Source: Nonlabens ponticola | Lineage (GTDB): Bacteria > Bacteroidota > Bacteroidia > Flavobacteriales > Flavobacteriaceae | Direction: 5' to 3' | NCBI RefSeq assembly: GCF_003966335.1 | Contig: NZ_CP034549.1 | Location: 870,001-902,000 of the forward strand | DNA length: 32,000 nt | Shown: positions 1 to 31,548 of the stretch, in pieces | How the letters are laid out: each line of letters starts with the position of its first letter | Numbering within the stretch: position 1 is the stretch's first letter | Notes under the pieces: model-generated | Seen by the model: only the letters and a program-made list of their open reading frames with translations | Databases searched by the model: none | What the model was told of the DNA's origin: nothing | Position numbers and translations under genes: made by a program

Positions 1-824
1 ATAGCAAAATCTGGAACCACTTGCTCCACAATGCGTGTGCTGCCGCCAGCATAGGAGCTACCAGGCTTAGGGTTTAAGTGGCTTATCTCATCAATGGCAT
101 CGCGCAATTGAATCTCGTCAATGTTATACTTTGCGAGTAACTTCTTGTAATGCTTCTTGCTAAATGCATCAAAGGATTCACTCACCATCTTCAAGGCAAG
201 ATCTGTTGTTGGATTGTTACGCTTTCGCGAAAGCTGAATCACTAAACACTCCTTCAAATCTCTAGCGCCTACACCAGCTGGATCCAGATCGTGCACGACT
301 TTAAGAACGCGCTCCACGGTCTCAACATCAGTATAGATGTTCATGGTGAAGGCAAGATCATCTGTAATATCCTCGAGCGATCGTCGTATGTAACCACTAC
401 TGTCGATACTGCCCACAAGAAACTCTGCGATGGCACGATCGTTATCACTCAACCTGCGCGTGTTTAATTGATCTTTAAGCGTTTGGGTAAAGGATTTGCC
501 GGATGCATACGGTATGCTGGTTTCCTCATCGTCCGCGCTGTAATTATTGGCTCTGGTGCGATATTCTGGTATCTCATCGTCACTCAGGTAGTCATCGACA
601 TTGATTTCAGGCTCTGGTGCCTCGTCATAATCATTCTCGTTTGAGAACTCGTCATACTCATCATCACTTTTTTCCTTGCCGTTATCCAGCGCTGGATTTT
701 CCTCAAGCTCTGACTTAACGCGCTGTTCAAAAGCCTGTGTAGGCAGCTGTATCAACTTCATGAGTTGTATTTGCTGCGGCGATAGCTTTTGACTGAGCTT
801 GAAATTTAAGGACTGTTTAAGCAT
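1..824 (-). CDS. rpoN: RNA polymerase sigma-54 factor, N-terminal ~274 codons (3' end runs off the left edge)
   Basis: Absent from the ORF track because it is truncated. My translation from the ATG at 822-824 reads MLKQSLNFKLSQKLSPQQIQLMKLIQLPTQAFEQRVKSELEENPALD, then an acidic linker, then DLKECLVIQLSRKRNNPTTDLALKMVSESFDAFSKKHYKKLLAKYNIDEIQLRDAIDEISHLNPKPGSSYAGG. The Gln/Leu-rich region I and the core-binding region are typical of sigma-54. Confidence 0.9.
   Translation of the reverse strand, partial: MLKQSLNFKLSQKLSPQQIQLMKLIQLPTQAFEQRVKSELEENPALDNGKEKSDDEYDEFSNENDYDEAPEPEINVDDYLSDDEIPEYRTRANNYSADDEETSIPYASGKSFTQTLKDQLNTRRLSDNDRAIAEFLVGSIDSSGYIRRSLEDITDDLAFTMNIYTDVETVERVLKVVHDLDPAGVGARDLKECLVIQLSRKRNNPTTDLALKMVSESFDAFSKKHYKKLLAKYNIDEIQLRDAIDEISHLNPKPGSSYAGGSTRIVEQVVPDFA
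216..255 (+). repeat. palindromic element copy 1 (inside the rpoN CDS, antisense to it)
   Basis: GTTACGCTTTCGCGAAAGC lies at 216-234, with the 14-nt perfect palindrome at 221-234. Positions 209-234 match the copy at 14611-14636 at 25 of 26 positions. The right flank TGAATCACTAAACAC resembles the family flank. Confidence 0.8.
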
Positions 825-950
825 GTTGGTTTACTTGGACTGCTAAAAATAGAGAAAGCGATCAGGAATTAGGGTAACGAAATTATAAATTAATCCTTTC
901 AGCTTTTTTTCTACCATCATGATATGAATTCGTTGAAATTTTATTTTTAC

Positions 951-984
951 CAAAAAGCCCAATCGCTTGAGATTGGGCTTTTGT
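951..984 (-). terminator. rho-independent terminator downstream of asnS
   Basis: A perfect 10-bp stem AAGCCCAATC (955-964) pairs with GATTGGGCTT (971-980) around a 6-nt loop. On the minus-strand RNA it is followed by a U-rich tract. Confidence 0.8.
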
Positions 985-1011
985 TATTTAAGACGTGACA
1001 GTAACCAGCTT

Positions 1012-2460
1012 TTAAAAAGCCGCATTACCAGGTGTGCGAGGATAAGGAATTACATCTCGTACATTGCCCATGCCTGTAACAAACATCACTAGACGCTCAA
1101 ATCCTAGTCCAAAACCGCTGTGCGTCACACTACCAAATTTGCGCATTTCCAGATACCACCATAGTTCTTCTTCTGGGATGCCCATGGTATCCATTTTTTG
1201 CTTGAGCACATCATAACGTTCCTCACGCTGTGATCCACCTACAATCTCACCAATTCCTGGGAACAAGATGTCCATCGCTCGCACGGTCTCGCGACCTTCG
1301 TTATCCTTATCATTAAGCCGCATGTAAAATGCCTTGATTTTAGCAGGATAATCAAACAGAATTACAGGGCATTTAAAGTGCTTCTCTACTAGAAAACGTT
1401 CATGTTCTGATTGTAGATCTGCGCCCCATTCTTCAATCAGGTATTGGAATTTCTTCTTTTTGTTAGGCTTCGAGTTTTTGAGAATGTCAATCGCCTCAGT
1501 ATAACTCACACGCTTAAAGTTGTTCTTAAGAACGAACTCCAGTTTTTCCTTGAGTGGCATCGGGCTACGCTCTGCTTGCGGCTTTGACTTCTCTTCTTGT
1601 GTGAGTCTGTTTTCTAAAAAGTCAATATCATCAGCACAGTTCTCCATGACATACTGGATCACATCCTTGATAAAATCCTCAGCAAGATCCATGTTGTCCT
1701 GCAGGTCATTAAAGGCCACCTCGGGCTCAATCATCCAGAATTCTGCTAGGTGGCGTGAGGTGTTTGAATTCTCTGCCCTAAAAGTTGGACCAAAGGTGTA
1801 CACCTGACCCAAGCCCATCGCATATGTTTCGGCTTCCAGTTGCCCAGAAACTGTGAGATTAGATTCCTTACCAAAAAAATCCTTCTTATAATCAATAGCG
1901 CCATCATCAGTAAGCGGTGGATTTTTAGGATCCAGCGTCGAGATACGGAACATCTCGCCAGCGCCTTCTGCATCGCTACCAGTAATGATTGGCGTGTGCG
2001 CTTGATAAAAACCTTGTTCTTGAAAATAGCGGTGTATCGCAAACGATAATGCGGCACGCACTCTCATCACCGCGCCAAAGGTATTGGTACGCACCCTCAA
2101 ATGCGCCTGTTCTCTAAGCGTTTCAAGATTGTGACGTTTAGGCGAGAGTACCGTTTTCTTCACATCTTCAGGATCAGCTGGTGCGAGAACCTTTACCTCA
2201 CTAGCCTGCAATTCTACTCGTTGACCTTTTCCTTCACTTTCTACCAGTGTTCCTTTAACAGCAACGGCTGCGGCGATGTTGATTTGATCCAGTAACTCAC
2301 GATCCATAGTTTCTGGATCAACCACACACTGTAAGTTATGGATGGTCGAGCCATCATTAACGGCAATAAATCGGTCATTTCTAAAACTGCGCACCCAACC
2401 CTTTACAGTTATTTCCTGCATGCTAGGATCAGATTTAAGTAGAGCGGCTATTCGTTTCAT
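1012..2460 (-). CDS. asnS: asparagine--tRNA ligase
   Basis: The ORF-track protein shows class IIb aaRS features (N-terminal OB fold KGWVRSFR, FRAENSNTSRHLAEFWMIEPE, GGSQREER, GFGLGFERL). I prefer the ATG at 2460 (MKRIAALLK) because the track's TTG start at 2484 lies inside a TATATTTG -7 promoter box. Confidence 0.95.
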   Translation of the reverse strand: MKRIAALLKSDPSMQEITVKGWVRSFRNDRFIAVNDGSTIHNLQCVVDPETMDRELLDQINIAAAVAVKGTLVESEGKGQRVELQASEVKVLAPADPEDVKKTVLSPKRHNLETLREQAHLRVRTNTFGAVMRVRAALSFAIHRYFQEQGFYQAHTPIITGSDAEGAGEMFRISTLDPKNPPLTDDGAIDYKKDFFGKESNLTVSGQLEAETYAMGLGQVYTFGPTFRAENSNTSRHLAEFWMIEPEVAFNDLQDNMDLAEDFIKDVIQYVMENCADDIDFLENRLTQEEKSKPQAERSPMPLKEKLEFVLKNNFKRVSYTEAIDILKNSKPNKKKKFQYLIEEWGADLQSEHERFLVEKHFKCPVILFDYPAKIKAFYMRLNDKDNEGRETVRAMDILFPGIGEIVGGSQREERYDVLKQKMDTMGIPEEELWWYLEMRKFGSVTHSGFGLGFERLVMFVTGMGNVRDVIPYPRTPGNAAF

Positions 2461-2481
2461 ATAGGTTGCTTGTGAGTGCGG

Positions 2482-2512
2482 CAAATATAAATTTAATGAC
2501 CGCCATTGTCAA
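2482..2512 (-). promoter_or_regulatory. Bacteroidota sigma-A type promoter for asnS (TTG-N20-TATATTTG)
   Basis: The minus strand reads TTGACAATGGCGGTCATTAAATTTATATTTG. The -7 box TATATTTG (plus-strand 2482-2489) matches TAnnTTTG exactly and lies 21 nt upstream of the ATG at 2460. Confidence 0.5.
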
Positions 2513-2561
2513 TCAATCAACCCATAAATAGCGGTTGATGTGTTTGTAGGGTAGTTGTTGC

Positions 2562-2604
2562 GGTTACGCTTTCGCGAAAGCAAAATTATCACCATCTCAA
2601 AAGG
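2562..2604 (+). repeat. palindromic element copy 2 (intergenic, between the MMPL gene and asnS)
   Basis: GGTTACGCTTTCGCGAAAGC lies at 2562-2581, followed by the flank AAAATTATCACCATCTCAAAAGG. Confidence 0.85.
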
Positions 2605-2694
2605 CTCGAGATAGTCACTGTTCATATCTCAAAATCATTCAAACAAACTTGATGACTGGTAAGTAACATAGCAAAGAAACTAGAATTATGAAAA

Positions 2695-2736
2695 TCGAAC
2701 TTGAACTTGAACTTGAATTTGAACCCGAATTTGAAA
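2695..2736. repeat. imperfect hexanucleotide tandem repeat, 7 units of the TTGAAC type
   Basis: The sequence reads directly as TCGAAC TTGAAC TTGAAC TTGAAT TTGAAC CCGAAT TTGAAA. It is intergenic, about 100 bp 3' of the MMPL stop and about 235 bp 5' of the asnS start. Confidence 0.85.
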
Positions 2737-2834
2737 ATCCCGGAAAATCATTCTCGAAAAATGCCTAATACCTCTAATAATATTGCCTGCTTCAATTTAA
2801 AACAGAGCCTGAGGTTACGCCTGCAGATTAAATA

Positions 2835-5225
2835 CTATTCTTCCTCATCAGCATCCTTAGCGATAATTTGCATTGCTGGTTTTTTGAACGTCTTTTTATT
2901 AGCGATATTCCTTTCTAGGGATAACAGCATACTAGGCAGCAACAGTAAATTAGCAAGCATGGCAAACAACAGTGTTGCACTTACCAAAGCACCTAGAGCC
3001 ACCGTGCCACCAAAACTTGAAATCGTAAACGTACTGAATCCAAAAAACAGCACTATCGAGGTATAAAACATACTCACACCAGTCTCACGCAGCGCACCAT
3101 AGACAGACTTTTTGATGGCCCATTTATTGGCGATGAGCTCTTGACGATATTTTGCCAAAAAGTGAATCGTATCATCCACTGAAATTCCAAAGGCAATAGA
3201 AAACACGAGAATCGTTGATGGTTTGATAGGCACACCTATGTAACCCATAAGTCCAGCGGTAATCAACAGTGGTAGTAAATTAGGAACCAGCGACACCAAT
3301 ATCATCCTAAAACTGCGGAACATCCACGCCATAAATAGCGCGATCAACACGATCGCAAGTGATAAAGACAATACCAGATTATTGATCAGGTAATTAGTTC
3401 CTTTTTGGAAAACAAGTGCCTTACCTGTAAGTAGAACGTCGTATTTGTCCGCTGGAAAAACCTTTTCAATTTCTTCCTGTAAATTTTCCTCGACGCGTAC
3501 CATGCGATCGGTGCCCATGTCTTTCATAAACGTTGTGATCCTAGCATAGCGACCGGTGCTATCAACATAGCTATTCATGAGTCCTATATCACCGCTATTA
3601 TTTTCAAGCAGCGGCGCAATGAATAAACGCTCATTGCTACTAGGTAAATCATAGAATTCTGGGTCGCCGCCGTAGAAAGCCTGTTTAGTATACTTGACCA
3701 GACTAACAATCGATAACGGTCTTGAAAGTTCGGGTGTTTCAATAATGTGTTCCTCAAGTTTGTTGAGTTTCTTGAGATTTTTGGCTTGGGTGACACCTTC
3801 TTTTCTGCGAGTGTCGACAAGTATTTCTAGTGGCATGATACCGTTATAGCTTTCCTCAAAAAACTTGATGTCTTTGTAGAATTGCTTGCCTTTGGGCATG
3901 TCCTCAATAAGACTTCCCGAAACGCGTATTTGATAAATACCTATGATGCTGGCGATTAATACCAGCAAACTAGAAATGTAAATGGCAATACGATAATTGC
4001 GCACCATGCGTTCCATCCAGTCAACAAATCCACCTATCCATTGCTTTCTCAAGTGCTCTAAGTGGCGATCCTTAGGTAACGGCAGGTAGCTGTAAATAAT
4101 GGGTATGACCATCAAACTAATAAGGAAAATACTGATAATACAAATTGAGGCGACCGTACCAAATTCTGCTAGTAGTGTACTATCGGTAAAAATGAACGTT
4201 GCAAAACCACTAGCCGTGGTAATGTTTGTCATGAGTGTGGCATTCCCAACTTTGGTAATGACGCGTTGCAGCGATTTTGCTTGATTACCATGCTTCTTTA
4301 TTTCTTGCTGGTACTTATTGATCAGGAAAATGCAGTTGGGAATCCCAATGACAATGATTAATGGCGGAATCAAAGCTGTCAAAACTGTGATCTCATACCG
4401 CAATAATCCTAGTATCCCAAAAGCCCACATCACGCCAATGACTACGGTGACTATAGAGATAAATGTCGCACGCCACGACCTAAAGAAAAAGAAGAATATA
4501 CCTGAAGTAATTAACAATGCTGCAAGCAAGAAGATACCTATCTCATCTACAATGTTCTGGGCATTGAGTGTACGTATGTAAGGCATACCAGAAACCTTGA
4601 TATCTATTCCTTGTTCCTCGCTAATGCGCTGGATCATAGGCTCTAGATCATCCAGAACAAATTCCTTGCGTTCAATGGTATTAACGACATCTTTTTTAAG
4701 GTAGATCGCTGTGCGCAGCACGCTATCCTTTTCTGAATAGATTAGGTTTTTATAGAACGGTAAATCGGTAAACAGTTTTGTCTTGAACTTGTCAAATTGC
4801 TCATCGCTGGTGAGCGGCTCGCTGATAAGGTTGCGTATCTCAAACTTAGTTGCCTCTTCATTCTTAACGAGTTCAGGCAGGTCTGCAGTAGAGAGCGTGA
4901 AATCTACTTCATTGAAAGTTGCTAGACTATCAGCAATGGCATTCCATGTATTGAAGTCTTTATAGCTCTTGAGTTCGCTTTGTTCTACACCTAGAATGAT
5001 CAAGTTTCCTTCTTCACCAAAAAGCGACAGGAACTCATTATATTCTTGATTAACTGGATGATCGTCTGGTAAAAGGTTAGCCTCGGTATGCGAGAACTGC
5101 ATGTATTTCCATTGCGTGGCAAGCGCGATGGTGATAAGAATTACAGCACTCAAAATGGTGATTCTATTGCGCAGGATCAATCGTGCTACATAATTCCAAA
5201 AACCAAAACTGAATAATTTATGCAT
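2835..5225 (-). CDS. MMPL/RND-superfamily (HpnN-like, sterol-sensing-domain type) membrane transporter
   Basis: 796 aa with two blocks of about 6 TM helices, each preceded by a large soluble loop. This is the typical length and architecture of MMPL-type RND exporters rather than AcrB-type ones. Confidence 0.8.
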   Translation of the reverse strand: MHKLFSFGFWNYVARLILRNRITILSAVILITIALATQWKYMQFSHTEANLLPDDHPVNQEYNEFLSLFGEEGNLIILGVEQSELKSYKDFNTWNAIADSLATFNEVDFTLSTADLPELVKNEEATKFEIRNLISEPLTSDEQFDKFKTKLFTDLPFYKNLIYSEKDSVLRTAIYLKKDVVNTIERKEFVLDDLEPMIQRISEEQGIDIKVSGMPYIRTLNAQNIVDEIGIFLLAALLITSGIFFFFFRSWRATFISIVTVVIGVMWAFGILGLLRYEITVLTALIPPLIIVIGIPNCIFLINKYQQEIKKHGNQAKSLQRVITKVGNATLMTNITTASGFATFIFTDSTLLAEFGTVASICIISIFLISLMVIPIIYSYLPLPKDRHLEHLRKQWIGGFVDWMERMVRNYRIAIYISSLLVLIASIIGIYQIRVSGSLIEDMPKGKQFYKDIKFFEESYNGIMPLEILVDTRRKEGVTQAKNLKKLNKLEEHIIETPELSRPLSIVSLVKYTKQAFYGGDPEFYDLPSSNERLFIAPLLENNSGDIGLMNSYVDSTGRYARITTFMKDMGTDRMVRVEENLQEEIEKVFPADKYDVLLTGKALVFQKGTNYLINNLVLSLSLAIVLIALFMAWMFRSFRMILVSLVPNLLPLLITAGLMGYIGVPIKPSTILVFSIAFGISVDDTIHFLAKYRQELIANKWAIKKSVYGALRETGVSMFYTSIVLFFGFSTFTISSFGGTVALGALVSATLLFAMLANLLLLPSMLLSLERNIANKKTFKKPAMQIIAKDADEEE

Positions 5226-5242
5226 GTAGAAATAACTGGCTG

Positions 5243-5250
5243 CAAAGGTA
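5243..5250 (-). promoter_or_regulatory. candidate -7 box (TACCTTTG) for the MMPL transporter gene
   Basis: The minus strand reads TACCTTTGCAGCC, 17 nt upstream of the ATG at 5225. No clear -33 TTG is seen. Confidence 0.4.
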
Positions 5251-5308
5251 CAGGATAATTGCAGCTTCTACCAGTTTGCTTGAATAGGCAAGTGGTTGAA
5301 TTGCGGTC

Positions 5309-5875
5309 TTATTCTTCTGTTTGATTGAGCTTAAATAATACTGAACCAAAATAAAGCGTTGCGGCAGTTATCATTATGCTGGGTACTGCAAGTTTCAACG
5401 TGATTCCAGATAAACGAAAATTGATCAGTATTATGATCATGAAAATAAAGCATCCTGAACCAAATTTCAAGAGGCGTTCAAGTCCAGACATAAATCGACT
5501 GTTATAAACGATAAACGCAGGAATGAGAAATGACAGAAGGATTGAGGCTATGTAAGAATTAACACTAGCACCATGGTCAAAATTCATATAGGAAATGAGA
5601 GTTATGTAACTCATATTGAAAACAGTTAGGAAGAAGATGTTGGCAATACGTTTTCCTATAGGTACAGAAGTGCCGTCATCTACGGTTCTCAAATCTTCAA
5701 CATCTAGATCCAGCGCATCACATATTAATTGAAGCGTCTGACCTCGTGGCTCGTTTTTGGAATTTTCAATGCGCTGTATGGTTCTTAAGTTCACACCAGC
5801 AAGTTCTGCTAGTTTGTGTTGTGTTAGACCTTTAAGTTTGCGTTGCTTGATGATTTTTTGCGATGCCATGTTCAT
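5309..5875 (-). CDS. membrane-anchored XRE-family helix-turn-helix transcriptional regulator
   Basis: The N-terminus KQRKLKGLTQHKLAELAGVNLRTIQRIENSKNEPRGQTLQLICDAL is a classic Cro/C1 HTH, and the C-terminal ~110 aa contain 3-4 hydrophobic helices. The start is ambiguous (ATG at 5875 or 5869; the track's longest ORF starts at 5908). Confidence 0.75.
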   Translation of the reverse strand: MNMASQKIIKQRKLKGLTQHKLAELAGVNLRTIQRIENSKNEPRGQTLQLICDALDLDVEDLRTVDDGTSVPIGKRIANIFFLTVFNMSYITLISYMNFDHGASVNSYIASILLSFLIPAFIVYNSRFMSGLERLLKFGSGCFIFMIIILINFRLSGITLKLAVPSIMITAATLYFGSVLFKLNQTEE

Positions 5876-5894
5876 TGAATTTTGTTGACCACAA

Positions 5895-5922
5895 TCTAGG
5901 AAACTCATGGCTCAATCCTAGA
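5895..5922. promoter_or_regulatory. inverted repeat TCTAGGA-N14-TCCTAGA upstream of the XRE-HTH gene (candidate operator)
   Basis: Perfect 7-bp arms lie at 5895-5901 and 5916-5922, that is 20-47 nt upstream of the ATG at 5875. Confidence 0.3.
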
Positions 5923-5999
5923 ACAAAAAGACGACACTTTTGCGACATTTCAATTGCCGTAGCTGACAATCAATCGTTTGTCAAAGTATTAGCAGGTGT

Positions 6000-8237
6000 T
6001 TACAGTTCTAGGTAGAAAGTAAACTTAACCGAAATATTATCCTCAAAGTTAGGCAAGTGATAAGCGCCATAACGATAAGAGGTGCTTAGTCCAAATCCAA
6101 AAAGTAATTTATTGAGCTCAAAACCACTTTCTAGATAACCATGTTCCAGCGTGTCAAATTCTACATTGATATGCTGTTGTTGATCGTCCAGATTTCCAAT
6201 CGCAAATCTTGAAATCAACACTAACTCTGGTTGTAGATAAGAGGCAATTTTAAATGGAGCAAAGGAGTGCTTTCCTTGAAATATGGCAATCCTATCAGAG
6301 AAAAATTCATTGAAATACATGGTCTCAAAACTGCGACGACCAGCCACTGAAAATCGCTGTAAAATAGTTTCCTTATTAGGTGCATTAGGGTAGGCATGAA
6401 ATAAGTGTGTTAGTGGCACTTCACCGCTGGCATAGTGACCTTCTACCATAAACTGCGTGCGTGATTTGTCCTCGTTGAGCAACTCATAAGAAGCCTTGGC
6501 AGATACTTTCACATAATTAAAGTCAGAATCAATAACGTCCTTGAAACCTTTGGTAAGCTGCGCGCTCAATACAGGAAAACCATTGGTGCGCTCCTGATAG
6601 CCATTTGGCGATCGCATATACGTGCTGTAAGGGCTCCAGCGCGCGCCTATCTTCAATTCTGACAGTGCATACTCTGATAACTGGATGTCACCAGGCTGGA
6701 ATCGGTACGCGGTGGTTTGTGCAATACGCTTTCGCGAAAGCGAGACCTCACTAAGCACCGATGGTAGCAATCGTTGTTGTAAGGATGTCCCGTATTCTCT
6801 ATACAAGTAGAATGTTGGGATGTTGACTAGGCGCGGTTCAAATAGCGAGTACACTCGTGCATCAGTCAAGAAAGATTCTGCAGCAAACTCTTGAATGTCG
6901 TCGGTATGATAAACGTTGATCCAGGTATTTTTTTCACGACTCAATCGATAGCCAGCATTCACATTATATTTGATGGCCTTATCCTTAGTTCCATAAGCGA
7001 TGTAACCGCCTAGCCTGAATTTTTCTGAAAACTTCTCGTTCGTCGTACCACCTATACCTAACCTAAATGCCTCGTAATCATTGAATTTGACCAAGTACTT
7101 GAGGTCAATATCAAAGAAGCCAATAGGGTAGTAGCCTACCTTGAATTTATCAAGTGTTTCCAATTTTTTAGTGACATTGGTAGCTGCAACTACGCTGTCG
7201 ATTTGCTGATAGCTTTCAAATTGAGCATTATCTGCATCTACTTTGTCTCTGTAATCATCCCAGTAATTTACAGGTTTGTTGATGGCCTTATCGAGTACTT
7301 CAATCACTAGCCCTTTACGGCCGTAATCTGTATCAAGTGAGTTTTGGAAGTCATTATTTGCCGCCTTCAAGAAAACATACAAATCTTCATTGGTGTTTTT
7401 CTTTTTCTCCGTTTTTTCAGTTCCTACCTGTAAACGCGCGCCAAATAGCTCAAACTCCTTTTTGTCCTTTTCTTTTTTAATAAAAAGTTGCCTGCTGGTA
7501 TTGAACCATAGATTTAAGTCCTGATTGTATTTAAAATCATGTCGTGCGTCCACTTGAAGATCACCTGACTTAGAAAAATGAGCGCTAGCGATGGCTAGAC
7601 TTTGCTTGTCTAGATAAAAATGGCCTTGAATAGTTGATGGATTGCGATCGTTGATAGGGTCAAAACGCACCTTTTGAACCGCTCTACCATTGATAGTGGA
7701 ATCTTTGACAATACTATAGATATAGGTTTTGAGGCCTTTATTGCTTATTGGGTTGACAAACTTTCTATCAAAGATGATGTAGTGCTTATCATAAATACTG
7801 GTTGACTGGAAGTTTATGTTGTAGATAGGGTAGACAGGTTCTTCAAAACCTGGCATGTCAGCGCCTATGATTTGTTCTTTGAAACCGTATTTCTCATCAT
7901 ATATATAAGTCGATGTTTTTTCTGCAAAGAATACTCGAGTTTGTTTGAGTGTTTTTCTAAGCTCCGTTTTTTTGTAACCTGGACCTGTGATTGCTTCTGG
8001 ATCGCCTGTAATTTTCAAATTTTCATAGCTATCATAAGAAAATTGATTCAGAGCATGCAAAGGATCATTGTCGTTGACAGCGTTGAGAACCTGTTTCATC
8101 AAGATAATATCTTCAGGAAAATCAGTTTGTTGTGCGCTGACATTTAAAATTGTCAAAAGCGCTAACACTAGCAACGCTAACCGCAAGTAGTGCTTGCGTC
8201 CTGAAGGAATAATGGCGATACGTTGAGAGATGCTCAT
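6000..8237 (-). CDS. DUF5686-like outer-membrane beta-barrel protein without a CarboxypepD_reg-like N-terminal domain
   Basis: It has a signal peptide (LLVLALLTILNVSAQQ) and an aromatic-rich beta-strand C-terminus (KFTFYLEL). It shares blocks with the 863-aa ORF at 21892-24483, for example IYDKHYIIFDRKFVNPISNKGLKTYIYSI vs IYDRHIKFFDKSFVSPIGRAGIDSYNYVL. The family name is from memory of Bacteroidota annotations. Confidence 0.65.
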   Translation of the reverse strand: MSISQRIAIIPSGRKHYLRLALLVLALLTILNVSAQQTDFPEDIILMKQVLNAVNDNDPLHALNQFSYDSYENLKITGDPEAITGPGYKKTELRKTLKQTRVFFAEKTSTYIYDEKYGFKEQIIGADMPGFEEPVYPIYNINFQSTSIYDKHYIIFDRKFVNPISNKGLKTYIYSIVKDSTINGRAVQKVRFDPINDRNPSTIQGHFYLDKQSLAIASAHFSKSGDLQVDARHDFKYNQDLNLWFNTSRQLFIKKEKDKKEFELFGARLQVGTEKTEKKKNTNEDLYVFLKAANNDFQNSLDTDYGRKGLVIEVLDKAINKPVNYWDDYRDKVDADNAQFESYQQIDSVVAATNVTKKLETLDKFKVGYYPIGFFDIDLKYLVKFNDYEAFRLGIGGTTNEKFSEKFRLGGYIAYGTKDKAIKYNVNAGYRLSREKNTWINVYHTDDIQEFAAESFLTDARVYSLFEPRLVNIPTFYLYREYGTSLQQRLLPSVLSEVSLSRKRIAQTTAYRFQPGDIQLSEYALSELKIGARWSPYSTYMRSPNGYQERTNGFPVLSAQLTKGFKDVIDSDFNYVKVSAKASYELLNEDKSRTQFMVEGHYASGEVPLTHLFHAYPNAPNKETILQRFSVAGRRSFETMYFNEFFSDRIAIFQGKHSFAPFKIASYLQPELVLISRFAIGNLDDQQQHINVEFDTLEHGYLESGFELNKLLFGFGLSTSYRYGAYHLPNFEDNISVKFTFYLEL
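6725..6760 (+). repeat. palindromic element copy 3 (inside the DUF5686-like CDS, antisense to it)
   Basis: TACGCTTTCGCGAAAGCG lies at 6725-6742, with the 16-nt perfect palindrome at 6727-6742. The flank CCTCACTAAGCACC resembles the rpoN copy's flank ATCACTAAACAC. Confidence 0.75.
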
Positions 8238-10591: not shown

Positions 10592-10609
10592 TTACGCTTT
10601 CGCGAAAGC
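10592..10609 (+). repeat. palindromic element copy 4 (between the two paralogous lipoprotein genes)
   Basis: TTACGCTTTCGCGAAAGC lies at 10592-10609. Its right flank is the most divergent of the family. Confidence 0.8.
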
Positions 10610-14597: not shown

Positions 14598-15503
14598 TTG
14601 CACGACAATTTTGGGTTGTTACGCTTTCGCGAAAGCATAATCATTAAAAGCATCATCATCTTACCAGCATCTTATATATTAAAGAGCATTCCTGCACGAT
14701 GGCTGTTAGGGTTGTTCTCTCTTTGTACCATTATGACTAGTTGTATTGCGCAAAACAAAGCAACGACTGCTCGCACTGATTATAAATTAAATGCTGATGT
14801 TTTTTACGGCATCGATGATTTTGACAACCTGTTTTATAGTAAGGATAATGTGCTTTACAAGCGACCAGCGGCTGGTAATGCTCAACCCATGGAGTTTTAT
14901 GATGTCCAGTTGGGTGATCTCACCAGTGTCGATTTAATCAACCCATTGCGTGCATGTTTATTTTATAAAGACTCACAAACAGTGGTGTTGCTGGATAATC
15001 GTTTGAATGAAAGCGTGCGCATTTCTTTAAACGAGCTAGAGCCCTATAGATATATTGAACACGCTCGACTAGCTGGTGAGCGCAGGCTATGGCTATATAA
15101 TCAAGACCAGCAACGACTGGAATTGTATGATTACATACAGGATAAATTAATCGTTGCATCGCCAGTTGTCAAATCACAAGTGAATCAAATGCTGTCAGAT
15201 TACAATTATTGTCATCTCTTCACTGGCGATCAAGTCATCACTTTTAATAACTATGCCAGTAGGACAGGTGTGTTGTCAACTGGTGCCGCAGTCCTTGCAG
15301 ACTTTGACTTTGATAAGCTCGTTTTATTGAATGATGATGGCTGGCGTGCGTATAGGTTTAATAAGGACTATATCTTTGAGCCGCTGGACGATTGGTTGCC
15401 TGAAAATATGCCACAAGCTGCAGAATCCTTTTACCTAAAGAGCGGAAAACTCTATATTTACCGCCAGAACCAGATCGAGGTTCATACCACTAATCAAGAC
15501 TAG
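14598..15503 (+). CDS. hypothetical protein, probable lipoprotein (start codon uncertain)
   Basis: This is a long ORF that ends 6 nt before the kinase gene. The hydrophobic stretch WLLGLFSLCTIMTSC looks like a signal peptide with a lipobox. The track's 5' end (TTG at 14598) overlaps a promoter-like TAGTTTG and reads through the palindromic repeat at 14618-14636, so the true start is probably downstream of about 14640. The first in-frame ATG is at 14733. Confidence 0.7.
   Translation: MHDNFGLLRFRESIIIKSIIILPASYILKSIPARWLLGLFSLCTIMTSCIAQNKATTARTDYKLNADVFYGIDDFDNLFYSKDNVLYKRPAAGNAQPMEFYDVQLGDLTSVDLINPLRACLFYKDSQTVVLLDNRLNESVRISLNELEPYRYIEHARLAGERRLWLYNQDQQRLELYDYIQDKLIVASPVVKSQVNQMLSDYNYCHLFTGDQVITFNNYASRTGVLSTGAAVLADFDFDKLVLLNDDGWRAYRFNKDYIFEPLDDWLPENMPQAAESFYLKSGKLYIYRQNQIEVHTTNQD
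14618..14657 (+). repeat. palindromic element copy 5 (divergent region between rplM and the 14598 gene; probable 5' UTR)
   Basis: GTTACGCTTTCGCGAAAGC lies at 14618-14636, followed by the flank ATAATCATTAAAAGCATCATC. Confidence 0.85.
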
Positions 15504-16819: not shown

Positions 16820-17872
16820 TTAAACAATCCATCCATTCTCTCGAGCATGCTCGAGAGCTTCGCGAGATTCTTCTACAATTAAAATAGGGCAGATGTCAAA
16901 GGCATCAGCTAGTGCCTGATTGGCAGCCACTTTTTTAGCATTGCTTACCGCTCGTATGTAGATGGCTTTGATGCGATCAGGATACAGTTTTGCAGCGTTA
17001 GTGTAGTACTTGGCATCATGCTCGCCGGCATCACCAATCAGGATGAACTTTTGATCTGGATAATGTTTTAGGATATTGATGAGTTCGTGTTCCTTGTGTG
17101 GTCGTTTCAGTTTTTTAGTACGATCCCATGGCGTGGGAAAATCGCGCAGTAGGATAGGACCCTTGGGAAAACCATGAAAATCAATGAATTTCTCCAGATA
17201 GCGGTATAAATTCCATGGGCTGTTACTCAAATAGAACATTGGATTTTGATCCTTGCCACTCGCGCCTCGATGGAGTAATTGATAAAAGCTTGCGGCACCT
17301 TTAAAAGGGATGCGCTGATCATAATTGCGGAAAAACGTATTAAAAGCAACCCTTAATTTCAAGAAACTGGTCACGCCTGTTTGCATGATGGTGTCATCAA
17401 TATCGCTGATCACACCGTATGCCGTGGTTTCAGGTGGCACAAGCGTCTCACCGGTAAACGAATTAAGCGCAATGCGGTTTTGGGACTTAGCTTTCGCGTA
17501 AGCGGAATCATCCTCATCAAAAGCTATGTTGAGCGAAACATAACCTTCTTCATCTGCGATGTCTTGCAAATCGGTTTTTGTGGTGATGTCAAACAGGAAA
17601 TAACCTTCTTTATCGGTTATAGTTTTGTGCTTGTCGCCATTAGGTAATGTCAATACTACAGGAATCTCACGTATCTCGTCTGTTTTAAAGGCGCGCCAAG
17701 TATTGCGCAACGTTTGATAAAAGGTTTGCTGCTCATAGTGTTTGAGCGGTTGATCCTGCAACGCACGACCTCTTAAATACAAATGATGTTCACCACTATA
17801 GGTACGGAAAACATCAATAATCCACGGATCGCGCTGAAATATGCTCATAGGATTGGAAAAATACAAAAGCAT
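16820..17872 (-). CDS. App1-family (DUF2183) phosphatidate-phosphatase-like HAD/LNS2 protein
   Basis: It carries the DxDxT motif in VISDIDDTIMQTGV, followed by LSNSPWNLY and IGDAGEHDAKYY, which fits the App1/DUF2183 pattern (GDSGExD). An alternative ATG start lies at 17848. Confidence 0.75.
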   Translation of the reverse strand: MLLYFSNPMSIFQRDPWIIDVFRTYSGEHHLYLRGRALQDQPLKHYEQQTFYQTLRNTWRAFKTDEIREIPVVLTLPNGDKHKTITDKEGYFLFDITTKTDLQDIADEEGYVSLNIAFDEDDSAYAKAKSQNRIALNSFTGETLVPPETTAYGVISDIDDTIMQTGVTSFLKLRVAFNTFFRNYDQRIPFKGAASFYQLLHRGASGKDQNPMFYLSNSPWNLYRYLEKFIDFHGFPKGPILLRDFPTPWDRTKKLKRPHKEHELINILKHYPDQKFILIGDAGEHDAKYYTNAAKLYPDRIKAIYIRAVSNAKKVAANQALADAFDICPILIVEESREALEHARENGWIV

Positions 17873-21780: not shown

Positions 21781-21817
21781 ACGCTTTCGCGAAAGCAAAA
21801 TTCTTAAAAGCATCACT
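21781..21817 (+). repeat. palindromic element copy 6 (convergent intergenic region)
   Basis: ACGCTTTCGCGAAAGC lies at 21781-21796. Its flank AAAATTCTTAAAAGCATCACT is identical at 16 of 21 positions to the flank of copy 5. Confidence 0.85.
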
Positions 21818-21891: not shown

Positions 21892-24408
21892 TTAAAAACT
21901 GAAACCAAAACTACCCGTAATCGCAAAATTCCGAGCATCTGGTAAATCGTTGTAGTTACCTCTAAAACTAGCATCGATACGCAGTATACGGAAGATATTC
22001 CCGATGCCAAAACTGTATTCGTAGTAGATATCCTCTGGTGCTAGGTAGTCGATGTTGCTGCGATTAATTGCAACGTTATCAGCGCTTATGCTGCCATAAA
22101 CTGCCTTAAAGCCTATCAATTCTCTTAAGTCAAGGTCACGCAATCCAGGAATGCGTGAGAACAGGCGACCATTGAAGTTGTGATCTAGGTGCAGCGTCAC
22201 GTATTCATCAGTCACAAATTCATAGAAATTCATAGTATTGAACGATCCTGCAATATTGAACAACGTCTGGTTTCCAGGAACTACATTGAGCAACGCCAGC
22301 GGTACCTCGCCAAAAGTTTTTCCAGCCTCGACTCTCGCACGTAATCTACCAAATCCACCTATCTGCAATGGATGCTCATAGTAAATTTGAAACTTGTCAT
22401 AGTTGAAATCGCTATTGAGAACATCTTCTAGACCGCGCGTATAATTTGCATACAGGATAGGATATTGAAATGGATTGATGATGCTGCGATCCACACCATA
22501 ATTAGAAGTCTTGCGACCAGGTGTGTAGGTCATGGTGAGGCCTACCTCGCTTTGGTTGACTTGACTTTTTTCAACACCAGAGTCATCCAGATAATTAAGA
22601 CTAAAAAAGTCAGGATTAGCACTTTTGATCGTTCGATAGCTACCACCTAATCTAAATTCCAAATTATACAACGGCTCAAAACTAAGAGACACTGTAGATA
22701 AATTGATTGAGGAAAGCCTACCATTATTTCCCGTGCTTATCAACGCGCTTGAAGCAAGGCTGCGACCCAACACATCATCAGTGTTAGTAAGACTAGCTGC
22801 CAGTTGCTCAATATCGCGACGATTTCCAGCTTGAATGGTAAGTCTACTGCGTTTGTCAAGCAGGTACTTTCCAGATAACCCGTATTTAACCTGATCATCC
22901 CTAAATCCGTATGCGAGATAACCTTCAATTCTCCATGGGTCGTTAGGACCAAAGTAGGTGCGGCCACCACCGCGCAAGCGCAAACCTTCTACATCATTAA
23001 ATCCAAAAATTGAAAACACGGGTCCAATGTCAAAGTTGTTCACCTCGTAGTATCCAGAGGAAAGGATGGATCCTATATTGTAGATACGATTGAATTTTTT
23101 GTTCTGGCGCAAGGTGTCCAGCATCGTATAGATTTGCTTCTCGTCCTTGTTCAGTTTCTCCAGTCGGTTCTCATCCCAATATTGCTCGCTGCGGTTGTAT
23201 GTTTCTGGATCATAGTCGTTCACACGACGGCGGTAGAAATCATCAGGTTTCTTGATGTCAAATTGATACTGGTCATACAAGGTCGTACGCTTGCCGTAAA
23301 CTCCTTTACCTTCTTCCTTTTTATTAAAGGCAAAATCACTTTGGAAGTAATCACGGGTGATCAAGAACAAGCTGTCATTGAGTACTTGATATTCTTGTTC
23401 TAGGTAAATGTCCTTGACCCAATTTACGTTGGCACTTTTAGTTGCTTGCAAGTTAATTTCTTTGATAGCAAATGTGGAATCTGCTACCCAGAAATCTCCT
23501 TTAAAAGTGAGCTCACCTTTACGTCGCGGATAGTAAACTATATTAAAAGACCGCACACCATCGATGGCTGCGGTATCTCGTAGCACATAATTATAGGAAT
23601 CAATCCCAGCACGACCTATGGGACTCACAAAACTCTTGTCAAAAAACTTGATATGCCGGTCGTAGATATCGATATCGGTGTACAGATCTTTAACCAGCGC
23701 AATAAGCGTTTGATTATTGGAGAATCCAGAATTTTTATTGGCTTTAAGGACGTCCTTTTCTTTGTTCAATTTGTTGTCACCGTATACCGTTGACAAAGCT
23801 TCATTAATGAATATAGGTAGGTAGGTTTTACCGCTGGTACTACTGGTGTCGGCATAATTGAAGATAAATTCCATTCCCTCAAAAAGCCTGGAATTAATCA
23901 TGGTGCTGTCGATTGTGTTGAGATCAAATTCTAGCTTCTCGTATTTCTCATACTGGTATTGATCAAATTGGGACAAACCATTTTTTCTTCGGTTTTCCCA
24001 GATCTTTCTCAAGATGTCTAGTGCAGGATTAGTCTTTTTAGAAGTCTTACCAGAGTAAACAACCACCGCATCGAGTTGTGCCTCATCGCTTTCAAGCGTT
24101 ATCTCAAAATCTAGCGTGACTTGACTTTCTAACTTTACCAGCTTTGTCTTATAACCTATAAACGATACTTCAATGGCATCATAGCTGTTGTCAGACTGTA
24201 GGTAGAACCTACCATCATCATTGGTAATGGTTCCTTCGCTAGAATTGGGAAATACAACATTTGCAAATGGCACTGTGACACCATCTGTATCATATACAAC
24301 GCCACCTACTTTGGTCTGTGCTATCGAGATGGCAGAAATGCAAAAAGCCGCAACTAGCGAAATCGTAAGCGAAAACCTACGGTCAAATTCAATAAAGGAT
24401 ACTATCAT
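21892..24408 (-). CDS. DUF5686 outer-membrane protein with N-terminal CarboxypepD_reg-like domain
   Basis: The start is placed at the ATG giving the signal MIVSFIEFDRRFSLTISLVAAFCISAISIAQ; the track's longest ORF starts at 24483. The segment VGGVVYDTDGVTVPFANVVFPNSSEGTITNDDGRFYLQ is a typical carboxypeptidase-regulatory-like beta-sandwich. The C-terminus FAITGSFGFSF is a beta-barrel terminal-Phe signature. Confidence 0.75.
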   Translation of the reverse strand: MIVSFIEFDRRFSLTISLVAAFCISAISIAQTKVGGVVYDTDGVTVPFANVVFPNSSEGTITNDDGRFYLQSDNSYDAIEVSFIGYKTKLVKLESQVTLDFEITLESDEAQLDAVVVYSGKTSKKTNPALDILRKIWENRRKNGLSQFDQYQYEKYEKLEFDLNTIDSTMINSRLFEGMEFIFNYADTSSTSGKTYLPIFINEALSTVYGDNKLNKEKDVLKANKNSGFSNNQTLIALVKDLYTDIDIYDRHIKFFDKSFVSPIGRAGIDSYNYVLRDTAAIDGVRSFNIVYYPRRKGELTFKGDFWVADSTFAIKEINLQATKSANVNWVKDIYLEQEYQVLNDSLFLITRDYFQSDFAFNKKEEGKGVYGKRTTLYDQYQFDIKKPDDFYRRRVNDYDPETYNRSEQYWDENRLEKLNKDEKQIYTMLDTLRQNKKFNRIYNIGSILSSGYYEVNNFDIGPVFSIFGFNDVEGLRLRGGGRTYFGPNDPWRIEGYLAYGFRDDQVKYGLSGKYLLDKRSRLTIQAGNRRDIEQLAASLTNTDDVLGRSLASSALISTGNNGRLSSINLSTVSLSFEPLYNLEFRLGGSYRTIKSANPDFFSLNYLDDSGVEKSQVNQSEVGLTMTYTPGRKTSNYGVDRSIINPFQYPILYANYTRGLEDVLNSDFNYDKFQIYYEHPLQIGGFGRLRARVEAGKTFGEVPLALLNVVPGNQTLFNIAGSFNTMNFYEFVTDEYVTLHLDHNFNGRLFSRIPGLRDLDLRELIGFKAVYGSISADNVAINRSNIDYLAPEDIYYEYSFGIGNIFRILRIDASFRGNYNDLPDARNFAITGSFGFSF

Positions 24409-24522
24409 GGTGCGGTTGATACAAGTGGCGAATATATAACGACAATAATCAGGAATGGTTTTCTTTTCCATCGCTTTTTTCAATAGTAGAACTAGTGGCT
24501 ATTCAATCTGACCCTGATAAAT

Positions 24523-26485: not shown

Positions 26486-26524
26486 GTTAGCTTTCGCGAA
26501 AGCGTAATAATCAAAAACATCACG
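26486..26524 (+). repeat. palindromic element copy 7 (inside the etfB-etfA spacer)
   Basis: GTTAGCTTTCGCGAAAGCGTAA lies at 26486-26507, followed by the flank TAATCAAAAACATCAC. Confidence 0.85.
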
Positions 26525-31388: not shown

Positions 31389-31510
31389 AAATTGGTTGAC
31401 CTGAGTGCGGCTGGTCATACCTTGTTTTCTTGATAAGAATTCATGAGGCAATCTTGCAGCGCAGTATAATTGTAGCACCGATTTATTTTGTTGTTCTCAA
31501 ACGGTTTGAT

Positions 31511-31548
31511 GGTTACGCTTTCGCGAAAGCGTAATTACAAAAACCATA
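31511..31548 (+). repeat. palindromic element copy 8 (between thyA and the egtB-like gene)
   Basis: GGTTACGCTTTCGCGAAAGCGTAA is present, with the 22-nt perfect palindrome TTACGCTTTCGCGAAAGCGTAA at 31513-31534. It is followed by the flank TTACAAAAACCATA. Confidence 0.85.

Follow-up and report, generated by a model that had tools for sequence, protein, structure and literature searches.

Highly iterated palindrome 1 (HIP1) of cyanobacteria reportedly spread by substitution and not by transposition, as Robinson et al. are said to have concluded in 1997. It is an over-represented palindrome of coding and non-coding DNA alike, conserved both inside open reading frames (ORFs) and in the DNA between them and spaced non-randomly (periodically), with no evident peptide, RNA, or regulatory role (PMC5861425); its core carries extensions and occurs in lineage-specific variants (PMC4390886). 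Here we describe a palindromic word of a similar kind from 32,000 nucleotides of Nonlabens ponticola DNA (contig NZ_CP034549.1, positions 870,001 to 902,000; hereafter the window)—its core, GCTTTCGCGAAAGC, recurs along the window, and one copy lies in frame inside rpoN, the gene for sigma-54.

Two other groups of sequences are close enough to be weighed alongside HIP1. Uptake sequences are evenly spaced, according to what Karlin et al. are said to have reported in 1996, and Rickettsia palindromic elements (RPEs) are, by an account attributed to Ogata et al. in 2000, inserted segments roughly 100-150 bp long, which lengthen the host protein by tens of residues. The uptake signal sequences (USS) of Pasteurellaceae and the DNA uptake sequences (DUS) of Neisseria occur hundreds of times per genome, with 35-65% of copies in ORFs; the peptides that they encode are inflated, and poorly conserved residues are preferred (PMC2817400). 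Natural competence occurs in some Flavobacteriaceae, together with a preference for their own DNA; an uptake sequence has not been identified in this family (PMC7965970).

Comparison of the window with related loci leads us to a reading that we hold to be probable: the rpoN site would be one instance of a palindromic DNA word that is particular to this clade, hyper-abundant, and evenly spaced, and point substitutions would have written it into the gene. Loci of relatives are referred to below by L numbers, and coordinates of the window features are collected in Table 1.

The rpoN copy and its codons

The sequence at 209-234, TTGGATTGTTACGCTTTCGCGAAAGC, is identical at 25 of 26 positions to 14611-14636 and at 24 of 26 to both 26490-26515 (minus strand) and 31505-31530; none of 100 shuffles yielded any comparable match, which places the similarity far beyond chance. 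Eight exact copies of the core are found in the window, and a ninth, at 17490, matches at 13 of 14 positions. On the minus strand 209-234 is translated as KECLVIQLSRKRNNPTTD, within an ORF that carries Sigma54_AID and Sigma54_CBD domains and whose closest RpoN matches are the sigma-54 proteins of Nonlabens-like flavobacteria (77-81% identity). The core takes in the last base of Gln CAG (236-234), Leu CTT (233-231), Ser TCG (230-228), Arg CGA (227-225), Lys AAG (224-222), and the first base of Arg CGT (221-219). A first-pass annotation of this DNA had reported the 25-of-26 match, an element copy in frame within sigma-54 (QLSRKRNNPT), and its position where the conserved CLxIQL block gives way to a variable stretch; each of these observations stands.

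That annotation had also noted that the protein holds no extra inserted segment, and alignment agrees. Across 80 flavobacterial rpoN loci, the 40 residues that start with L-x-E-C align in register without a gap, with residues at fixed offsets nearly invariant (R in 80/80, K/R in 80/80, L in 78/80, A in 79/80, F in 80/80); the loop of the enteric sigma-54 of solved structure (DCLLIQLSQFAKETPW) is one residue longer than the flavobacterial loop, not shorter. An RPE-like in-frame insertion, one of the origins that had been proposed, needs added residues and is therefore excluded, as there are none in the 80 orthologues or relative to enteric sigma-54. The broader notion of an RPE-like selfish element, or one resembling a miniature inverted-repeat transposable element (MITE), colonising a tolerant sigma-54 loop draws on the multi-copy, palindromic nature of the family and its presence inside and outside genes. 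We give it next to no credence: besides the unchanged length, copies are stable at orthologous positions amid diverged flanks, and no target duplication or boundary is seen at the orthologous sites between the MMPL/RND gene and asnS.

The palindrome is instead accommodated by codon choice. Flavobacterial orthologues conserve the Q, L, R, and K of a QLxRK motif and leave x free (H in 27 of the 80, K in 14, S in 13, Q in 5, and others), and x is the only residue that the palindrome changes. The core plus the adjoining G (15 nt) is exact in the rpoN genes of L002, L201, and L202, which read CAG CTT TCG CGA AAG CGN; L001 differs by one change (TTG; 13/14), and four Dokdonia species read CAG CTT TCG CGA AAA (12/14). 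These are exactly the genomes that have the repeat family in their flanking DNA. Family-less genomes with the same QLSRK peptide spell it CAA TTA AGT/AGC/TCT AGA/CGT AAA, so the suggestion that relatives without the family might carry the same nucleotide sequence is not borne out. Under the codon usage of this genome the chance that QLSRK spells the palindrome is P=3e-4, because TCG accounts for 8% of Ser codons and CGA for 12% of Arg codons.

Synonymous constraint at the rpoN site

We compared 11 rpoN sequences from the two genera Nonlabens and Dokdonia, normalising for amino-acid degeneracy. When 280 five-codon windows are ranked by excess synonymous identity, those over the palindrome fill ranks one to four and six of the first seven ranks, with observed/expected ratios up to 1.6; the site is the strongest synonymous-conservation peak in the first 280 codons. 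The first-pass annotation had proposed looking for such conservation here.

The pattern is all-or-none, and two genomes show what follows loss. In L003 (N. xylanidelens) the family is kept elsewhere and the rpoN site has changed from S to K, reading CAA TTA AAA CGC AAA; every other synonymous position has drifted (four of five codons). L017, a metagenome-assembled genome of an uncultured member of the Flavobacteriaceae (SRP065251_co1_41), is Dokdonia-like, with 83% nucleotide identity to L023 in rpoN, and has no family copy in 13.5 kb. Its QLSRK is CAA TTA TCT CGT AAA, different in four of five codons, and an orthologous histidine-kinase copy has decayed to GTTTTTGCGAAAGC—both orthologous in-gene sites are decayed. 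As a test of accelerated decay the L017 drift gives P of about 0.1 against a background synonymous divergence of about 43%, so the L017 contrast is suggestive and, taken by itself, not significant. The retention of rare codons (TCG, CGA) and of a particular residue in the essential rpoN, together with the drift in L017 and L003, argues for a DNA-level constraint.

Two side observations concern rpoN itself. A near-match to the core, GCTTTCGCAAAAGC or ACTTTCGCAAAAGC, is present at rpoN codons of about 9-13 in the family-less genomes L009 (10024) and L017 (10027); it is a chance look-alike derived from the universal N-terminal KLSQKL (peptide LSQK). In L201 (Logan DRR018033_209) asnS and rpoN are each split into two ORFs (3566-5019, 5180-6638), probably by assembly frameshifts and possibly as pseudogenes, and the rpoN palindrome is intact despite the split.

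Dissection of the flanks

The match with 14611-14636 runs past the core on the variable side, and a short-patch gene conversion, or template switching at the core, would explain the 26-nt identity by copying an intergenic arm into rpoN. This reading, raised in the first-pass annotation, is in our view unlikely. In its favour, the flank at 209-220 scores 10.2 bits against the arms of this genome's own copies (p=2e-4), a score that none of the 80 orthologues approaches, and it is identical to one family arm at 11 of 12 positions (p=2.3e-4). Within it only GTAAC (216-220) is lineage-specific: 0 of 80 orthologues resemble it, and it fits the TTAC/GTAA extension preferred by this genome's copies. 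The residues RNN are common to L201 and the window, and the L201 sequence, GCAAC (CGC AAC), is a single synonymous C-to-T change from GTAAC. The remainder, AATCCAA (209-215), consists of ancestral Asn-Pro-Thr codons and is identical in the family-less Aquimarina L004; AATCCA is present in 6 of the 80 orthologues. A 26-nt conversion is not needed, since the core plus G is already in the rpoN genes of L002, L201, and L202 and the core is older than the species. Gene conversion as a general mechanism is rejected, because the rpoN flanks of relatives fail to match their own family arms (best 8/12, the cross-species background).

The 25-of-26 match is thus a composite: a conserved core of long standing, one or two substitutions specific to this lineage, and coincidence with ancestral codons. 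It had been foreseen that the similarity might collapse when properly aligned; it does so in part, separating into 15 nt of core plus G, the 4 nt TAAC specific to this lineage, and the 7 nt of ancestral AATCCAA, and the core remains. The same alignment answers the question of codon lineage-specificity in two ways, as GTAAC is confined to this lineage and the core codons are common to the family-bearing relatives. Behind GTAAC and the G-poor arms described below could stand selection that favours an extended site, a process by which copies homogenise one another, or simple chance.

On the other side of the core, the next ~20 nt had been said to resemble the family flank, and the resemblance is measurable: 235-255 scores 6.6-8.7 bits against family arms (p about 0.001-0.002). 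Family-less orthologues score about as well in the same flank (mean -0.1, sd 5.0, maximum 8.2 bits), and the flank is therefore ancestral rpoN sequence coding for the ECLxIQ block, not element-derived. This resemblance, seen even in family-less genomes, and the occurrence of the site in both genera are the points in favour of rpoN as the source of the whole family, an origin that the annotation had also entertained. We judge that origin very improbable. The family arms follow one symmetric consensus with C/G at positions +-1, but the conserved side of rpoN has A there; the core is absent from family-less relatives; other in-gene copies are conserved equally; and the arm resemblance is modest (p about 1e-3) and would be expected if sites establish where flanks already fit.

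Abundance of the family and its encoded peptides

Abundance and spacing were assessed in the 32 kb of this genome and in loci of up to about 20 kb from relatives. In 210 kb of family-bearing DNA the word TTTCGCGAAA is present 44 times, as against 0 times in 1.32 Mb from family-less relatives; 39 of the 44 are part of the full 14-mer, and Dokdonia rpoN sites make up four of the remaining five. Base composition gives a calculated expectation of about 4e-4 copies of the 14-mer, and exact copies are far more numerous than copies with one mismatch. None of the other genera represented in the 80 loci possesses an abundant 10-mer palindrome of its own.

Copies were classified by context in loci with at least two of them (the window, rpoN-anchored loci, and metagenome contigs), and 45 of the 87 classified lie within ORFs of at least 200 aa. 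In-gene copies use three frames, read as AFAKA, xLSRK, and xFRES, and leave a mark on the proteins. Comparing 64,000 residues from family-bearing loci with 417,000 from family-less loci, we find AFAKA 12 times against 0; per 1e5 aa, LSRK has 18.7 occurrences against 2.6 and FRES has 4.7 against 0.24—an enrichment of at least 7-fold. The palindrome itself encodes 22 of the 27 such peptides in family-bearing loci and none of the 12 in family-less loci.

Like the rpoN site, other in-gene copies are shared among species. The copy in the DUF5686 gene at 6728 corresponds to L002 1313, L003 5048, and L201 256, all read SLSRKRIxQTT; a histidine-kinase copy is orthologous in five Dokdonia species; and a further in-gene copy is common to L047 and L065.

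Matches in viral contigs are mostly single and chance-like, with the C..G extension in 22 of 129. A few IMG/VR contigs (L224, L238, L255, L280, L288, L291, L310, L316, and L319; 36-47% GC) have 2-3 copies each, most of them with family-like flanks; these contigs may represent prophages, or else DNA from hosts within the clade.

The palindrome was without description in the literature that we searched (the 14-mer, a 12-mer, Flavobacteria repeats, HIPs in Bacteroidetes, and Nonlabens/Dokdonia), a search of incomplete coverage.

Even spacing

The nine copies in the window are separated by gaps of 2347, 4160, 3868, 4027, 2867, 4293, 4707, and 5027 bp, with a coefficient of variation of 0.21 (P=1e-4 under a null of uniform placement). 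Without the in-gene copies at 6728 and 17490 there would be gaps of 7-8 kb, and the rpoN copy is one rung of this ladder. For a pooled test we took 45 spacings from 14 loci, conditioning on the first and last site of each locus; the standard deviation of the normalised spacings is 0.38 against 0.73 expected (P<5e-5). Even spacing is found in the eight metagenome loci alone (P=5e-5), persists against a null that forbids gaps below 800 bp (P=0.001), and is seen in the window and in L001-L003, L082, L083, L136, and L164. Spacing is typically about 2-5 kb, with a minimum of about 870 bp in loci with at least three copies.

Arm composition and RNA structure

The core is usually extended as CGC...GCG. 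Positions +-1 are C and G in about two thirds of the copies, genic and intergenic alike, giving the 16-mer CGCTTTCGCGAAAGCG, and arm complementarity exceeds expectation only out to +-4; a long extended hairpin stem is rejected on this ground. Outward of the core the arms are depleted of G for about 20 nt on either strand (often <10% G) and favour A at +3, +4, +7, +10 (82% in intergenic copies), and +13, with a period near 3; the A-rich, G-poor trend is weaker in in-gene copies. An extended protein footprint would be one possible source of this pattern, a mutational signature another.

RNA folds of the copies are weak, with most z values between 0 and -1.8, and among the copies folded 31517 is alone in forming a strong hairpin. 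The 3' arms are rich in A and not in T (U), and the 34 fully classified intergenic copies stand in 23 tandem, 7 divergent, and 4 convergent contexts. Rfam gave no match at any copy, either in a scan of the whole window at gathering thresholds or in a permissive scan of 1-3000. We reject an intrinsic terminator or RNA hairpin on the strength of the weak folds, the A-rich 3' arms, the divergent contexts, and the location of about half the copies in genes. Weak folds, A-rich 3' arms, mixed contexts, and the lack of an Rfam match therefore favour recognition of DNA over a terminator or structured RNA.

An RNA element particular to rpoN—an mRNA hairpin, or an antisense target of transcripts from intergenic copies, regulating sigma-54 synthesis—would account for the synonymous constraint at the site, and rpoN mRNA could form 26 nt of pairing, one G-U included, with a plus-strand transcript that crosses 14611-14636. 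We consider it quite improbable. The fold of the rpoN mRNA is unremarkable (z=-1.1), copies in unrelated genes are under the same constraint, and the constraint appears to be gone where the family is absent. The trans-antisense interaction suggested in the first-pass annotation finds no support either, as the conserved part in the rpoN orthologues is the self-complementary core only, without the arms.

A proposed mechanism and its weak points

If the palindromic word is written by substitution, as we propose, the rpoN site would have arisen through point substitutions and not through insertion. The conserved QL.RK block and its free residue would permit 15 of the 16 positions of the extended palindrome; the sixteenth is barred in rpoN because the Gln codon (CAG) is conserved. 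The conserved Q, L, R, and K would thereby have taken the sole synonymous set that spells the palindrome (CAG CTT .. CGA AAG), and the freely variable x would have become Ser with the rare codon TCG. The site would be old, kept as a unit where the family exists, with its synonymous positions drifting where the family or the site has been lost. The family as a whole would serve as a double-stranded DNA signal, comparable in type to HIP1 or to uptake sequences, most likely through a symmetric recognition factor that requires sites every 2-5 kb or so. Upkeep by selection or by a biased process acting on DNA, together with recognition by a protein, is what we infer from these patterns; putative recognisers include an uptake receptor, a nucleoid or repair protein, and a methylase.

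A wider proposal seems to us evenly poised between right and wrong: that (C)GCTTTCGCGAAAGC(G), 14-16 bp long with G-poor arms and placed every 2-5 kb, is a new genome-wide signal in Nonlabens-/Dokdonia-like marine Flavobacteriaceae, one that persists at orthologous sites, coding and non-coding, in both genera, overrides codon usage, and dictates the residues AFAKA, LSRK, and FRES in essential genes, rpoN among them. It would be the first signal of HIP1 type or uptake-signal type in Bacteroidota.

Several points weigh against a DNA word maintained in this way. No binding protein, methylase, or competence gene could be tied to the palindrome family. Several of the loci are orthologous, so the counts are partly non-independent, and the sample is short—this genome contributes 32 kb, and no locus of a relative exceeds about 20 kb. 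Conservation at orthologous sites, which was judged by synonymous ranking and by sites shared among species, could partly be homogenisation among copies and not selection, and the match of GTAAC to the arm preferred in this genome (p about 2e-4) hints at just that. Even spacing could partly follow gene or operon architecture. Finally, a rough RpoN tree with parsimony fits both a single ancient origin with later losses and parallel gains in Nonlabens and Dokdonia.

The case matters beyond rpoN. As for HIP1 and uptake sequences, a constraint at the DNA level competes with optimisation of the protein and its translation, and what began as a curiosity of one gene becomes evidence for a chromosome-level sequence signal in abundant marine bacteria. 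Such words can mislead the annotation of repeats, mobile elements, and gene conversion. The even spacing and the existence of a close relative without the family (L017) make the function directly approachable.

Other features of the window

Table 1. Features of the rpoN segment and copies of the palindrome in the window
Feature	Position	Strand	Remark
rpoN (sigma-54), N-terminal 274 codons	1..824	-	ATG 824-822; gene continues beyond window start
Variable-side flank, outward GTAACAATCCAA, codes (R)NNP(T)	209..220	-	Position weight matrix 10.2 bits, p=2e-4
Core palindrome GCTTTCGCGAAAGC inside rpoN	221..234	palindromic, no strand	Same codons in relatives
Conserved-side flank, codes KECLVI(Q)	235..255	-	ECLxIQ block; resemblance to arms intrinsic to rpoN
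Intergenic copy, MMPL/RND gene to asnS	2568..2581	palindromic	Orthologous in L003, L002; 12/14 in L201
In-gene copy, DUF5686 gene (6000-8237, -), read SLSRK	6728..6741	palindromic	Conserved in L002, L003, L201
Intergenic copy	10596..10609	palindromic	Core search
Copy in divergent region, rplM to 14598 ORF	14623..14636	palindromic	25/26 match partner of rpoN
13/14 copy, APP1-family phosphatase gene (16820-17872, -), read AYAKA	17490..17503	palindromic	Exact orthologous copy (AFAKA) at L001 9292
Intergenic copy, convergent gene pair	21783..21796	palindromic	Core search
Intergenic copy, etfB to etfA	26490..26503	palindromic	Core search
Intergenic copy downstream of thyA	31517..31530	palindromic	Sole copy with strong extended hairpin

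The flanks of the copy between the MMPL/RND gene and asnS cannot be aligned between species. Tandem 6-7-mer repeats stand beside it in the window (2699-2740, with a TTGAAC/TTGAAT-like unit), and L002 has tandem units of TGATTTG, GAATTTG, and GAACTTG near its copy (about 4540-4640); in L003 and L201 the palindrome lies about 12 nt after a stop codon in place of such repeats. Upstream of asnS there is a AAATTATATTTGCC box (about 2490-2510, minus strand), conserved also in L002, L003, and L201, which we take to fit the Bacteroidetes -7 promoter motif TAnnTTTG. The palindrome stands at a variable distance of about 40 to 90 nt from the box and is therefore not an operator at fixed spacing.

The ORF at 14598-15503 has a TTG start and reads through the palindrome as RFRES; the sequence ...KSIPARWLLGLFSLCTIMTSC resembles a lipoprotein signal peptide. 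The true start of the ORF is therefore uncertain, and the 14623 copy may belong to the 5' leader and not to the gene. Two DUF5686 paralogues are present (6000-8237 and 21892-24483), and only the first carries the palindrome. The other genes of the window are housekeeping genes: asnS, frr, pyrH, tsf, rpsB, rpsI, rplM, H+-pyrophosphatase, etfBA, and thyA.

Comparison with known systems

The flavobacterial palindrome shares features with four described groups and differs from each. Like the RPEs, it is a palindromic repeat found in frame inside conserved protein genes; unlike them, it adds nothing to the protein, and the match is made by codon choice. Nor is it a discrete element of about 100 bp or more, since conservation across species covers 14-16 bp and the flanks are unalignable. 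With the repetitive extragenic palindromes (REPs) and bacterial interspersed mosaic elements (BIMEs), associated with REP-associated tyrosine transposases (RAYTs), it has in common short palindromic repeats, hundreds per genome, and intergenic enrichment. REPs are extragenic, imperfect, and often paired, whereas about half of the copies here are in genes (the 45 of 87 in ORFs given above) and are positionally conserved; Pfam scans of the ORFs in the 32-kb window found no Y1 transposase (RAYT) gene.

The likeness to USS and DUS, words that mark DNA for preferential uptake by a competence machinery with a specific receptor, is closer. Accumulation in ORFs, inflation of peptides at variable residues, and AT-rich flanks recur in the flavobacterial family, and the rpoN change is confined to the variable x of QLxRK. 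USS and DUS are oriented words; the flavobacterial word is perfectly palindromic, and its peptide enrichment of at least 7-fold compares with roughly 2-fold reported for USS. Given the competence known from other Flavobacteriaceae (PMC7965970), an uptake-signal reading of the palindrome is conceivable.

HIP1 (GCGATCGC), which has cognate orphan methyltransferases in cyanobacteria, offers a close parallel: a short over-represented palindrome, genic and intergenic, at conserved sites with non-random spacing. The flavobacterial palindrome is over-represented by orders of magnitude, lies in coding DNA (in three frames) and non-coding DNA, would likewise have originated by substitution, is conserved at orthologous positions, and is regularly spaced. 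It differs from HIP1 in sequence, in phylum, and in length (14-16+ bp against 8); it is sparser, at about one copy per 2-5 kb, has G-poor, A-rich arms, and is strongly enriched between genes, with about half of its copies in a small fraction of the sequence. Membership in HIP1 or in USS/DUS is not claimable, as sequence, phylum, and palindromy differ; by analogy with the cyanobacterial word, the flavobacterial palindrome is best regarded as an analogue of HIP1 and not as a member.

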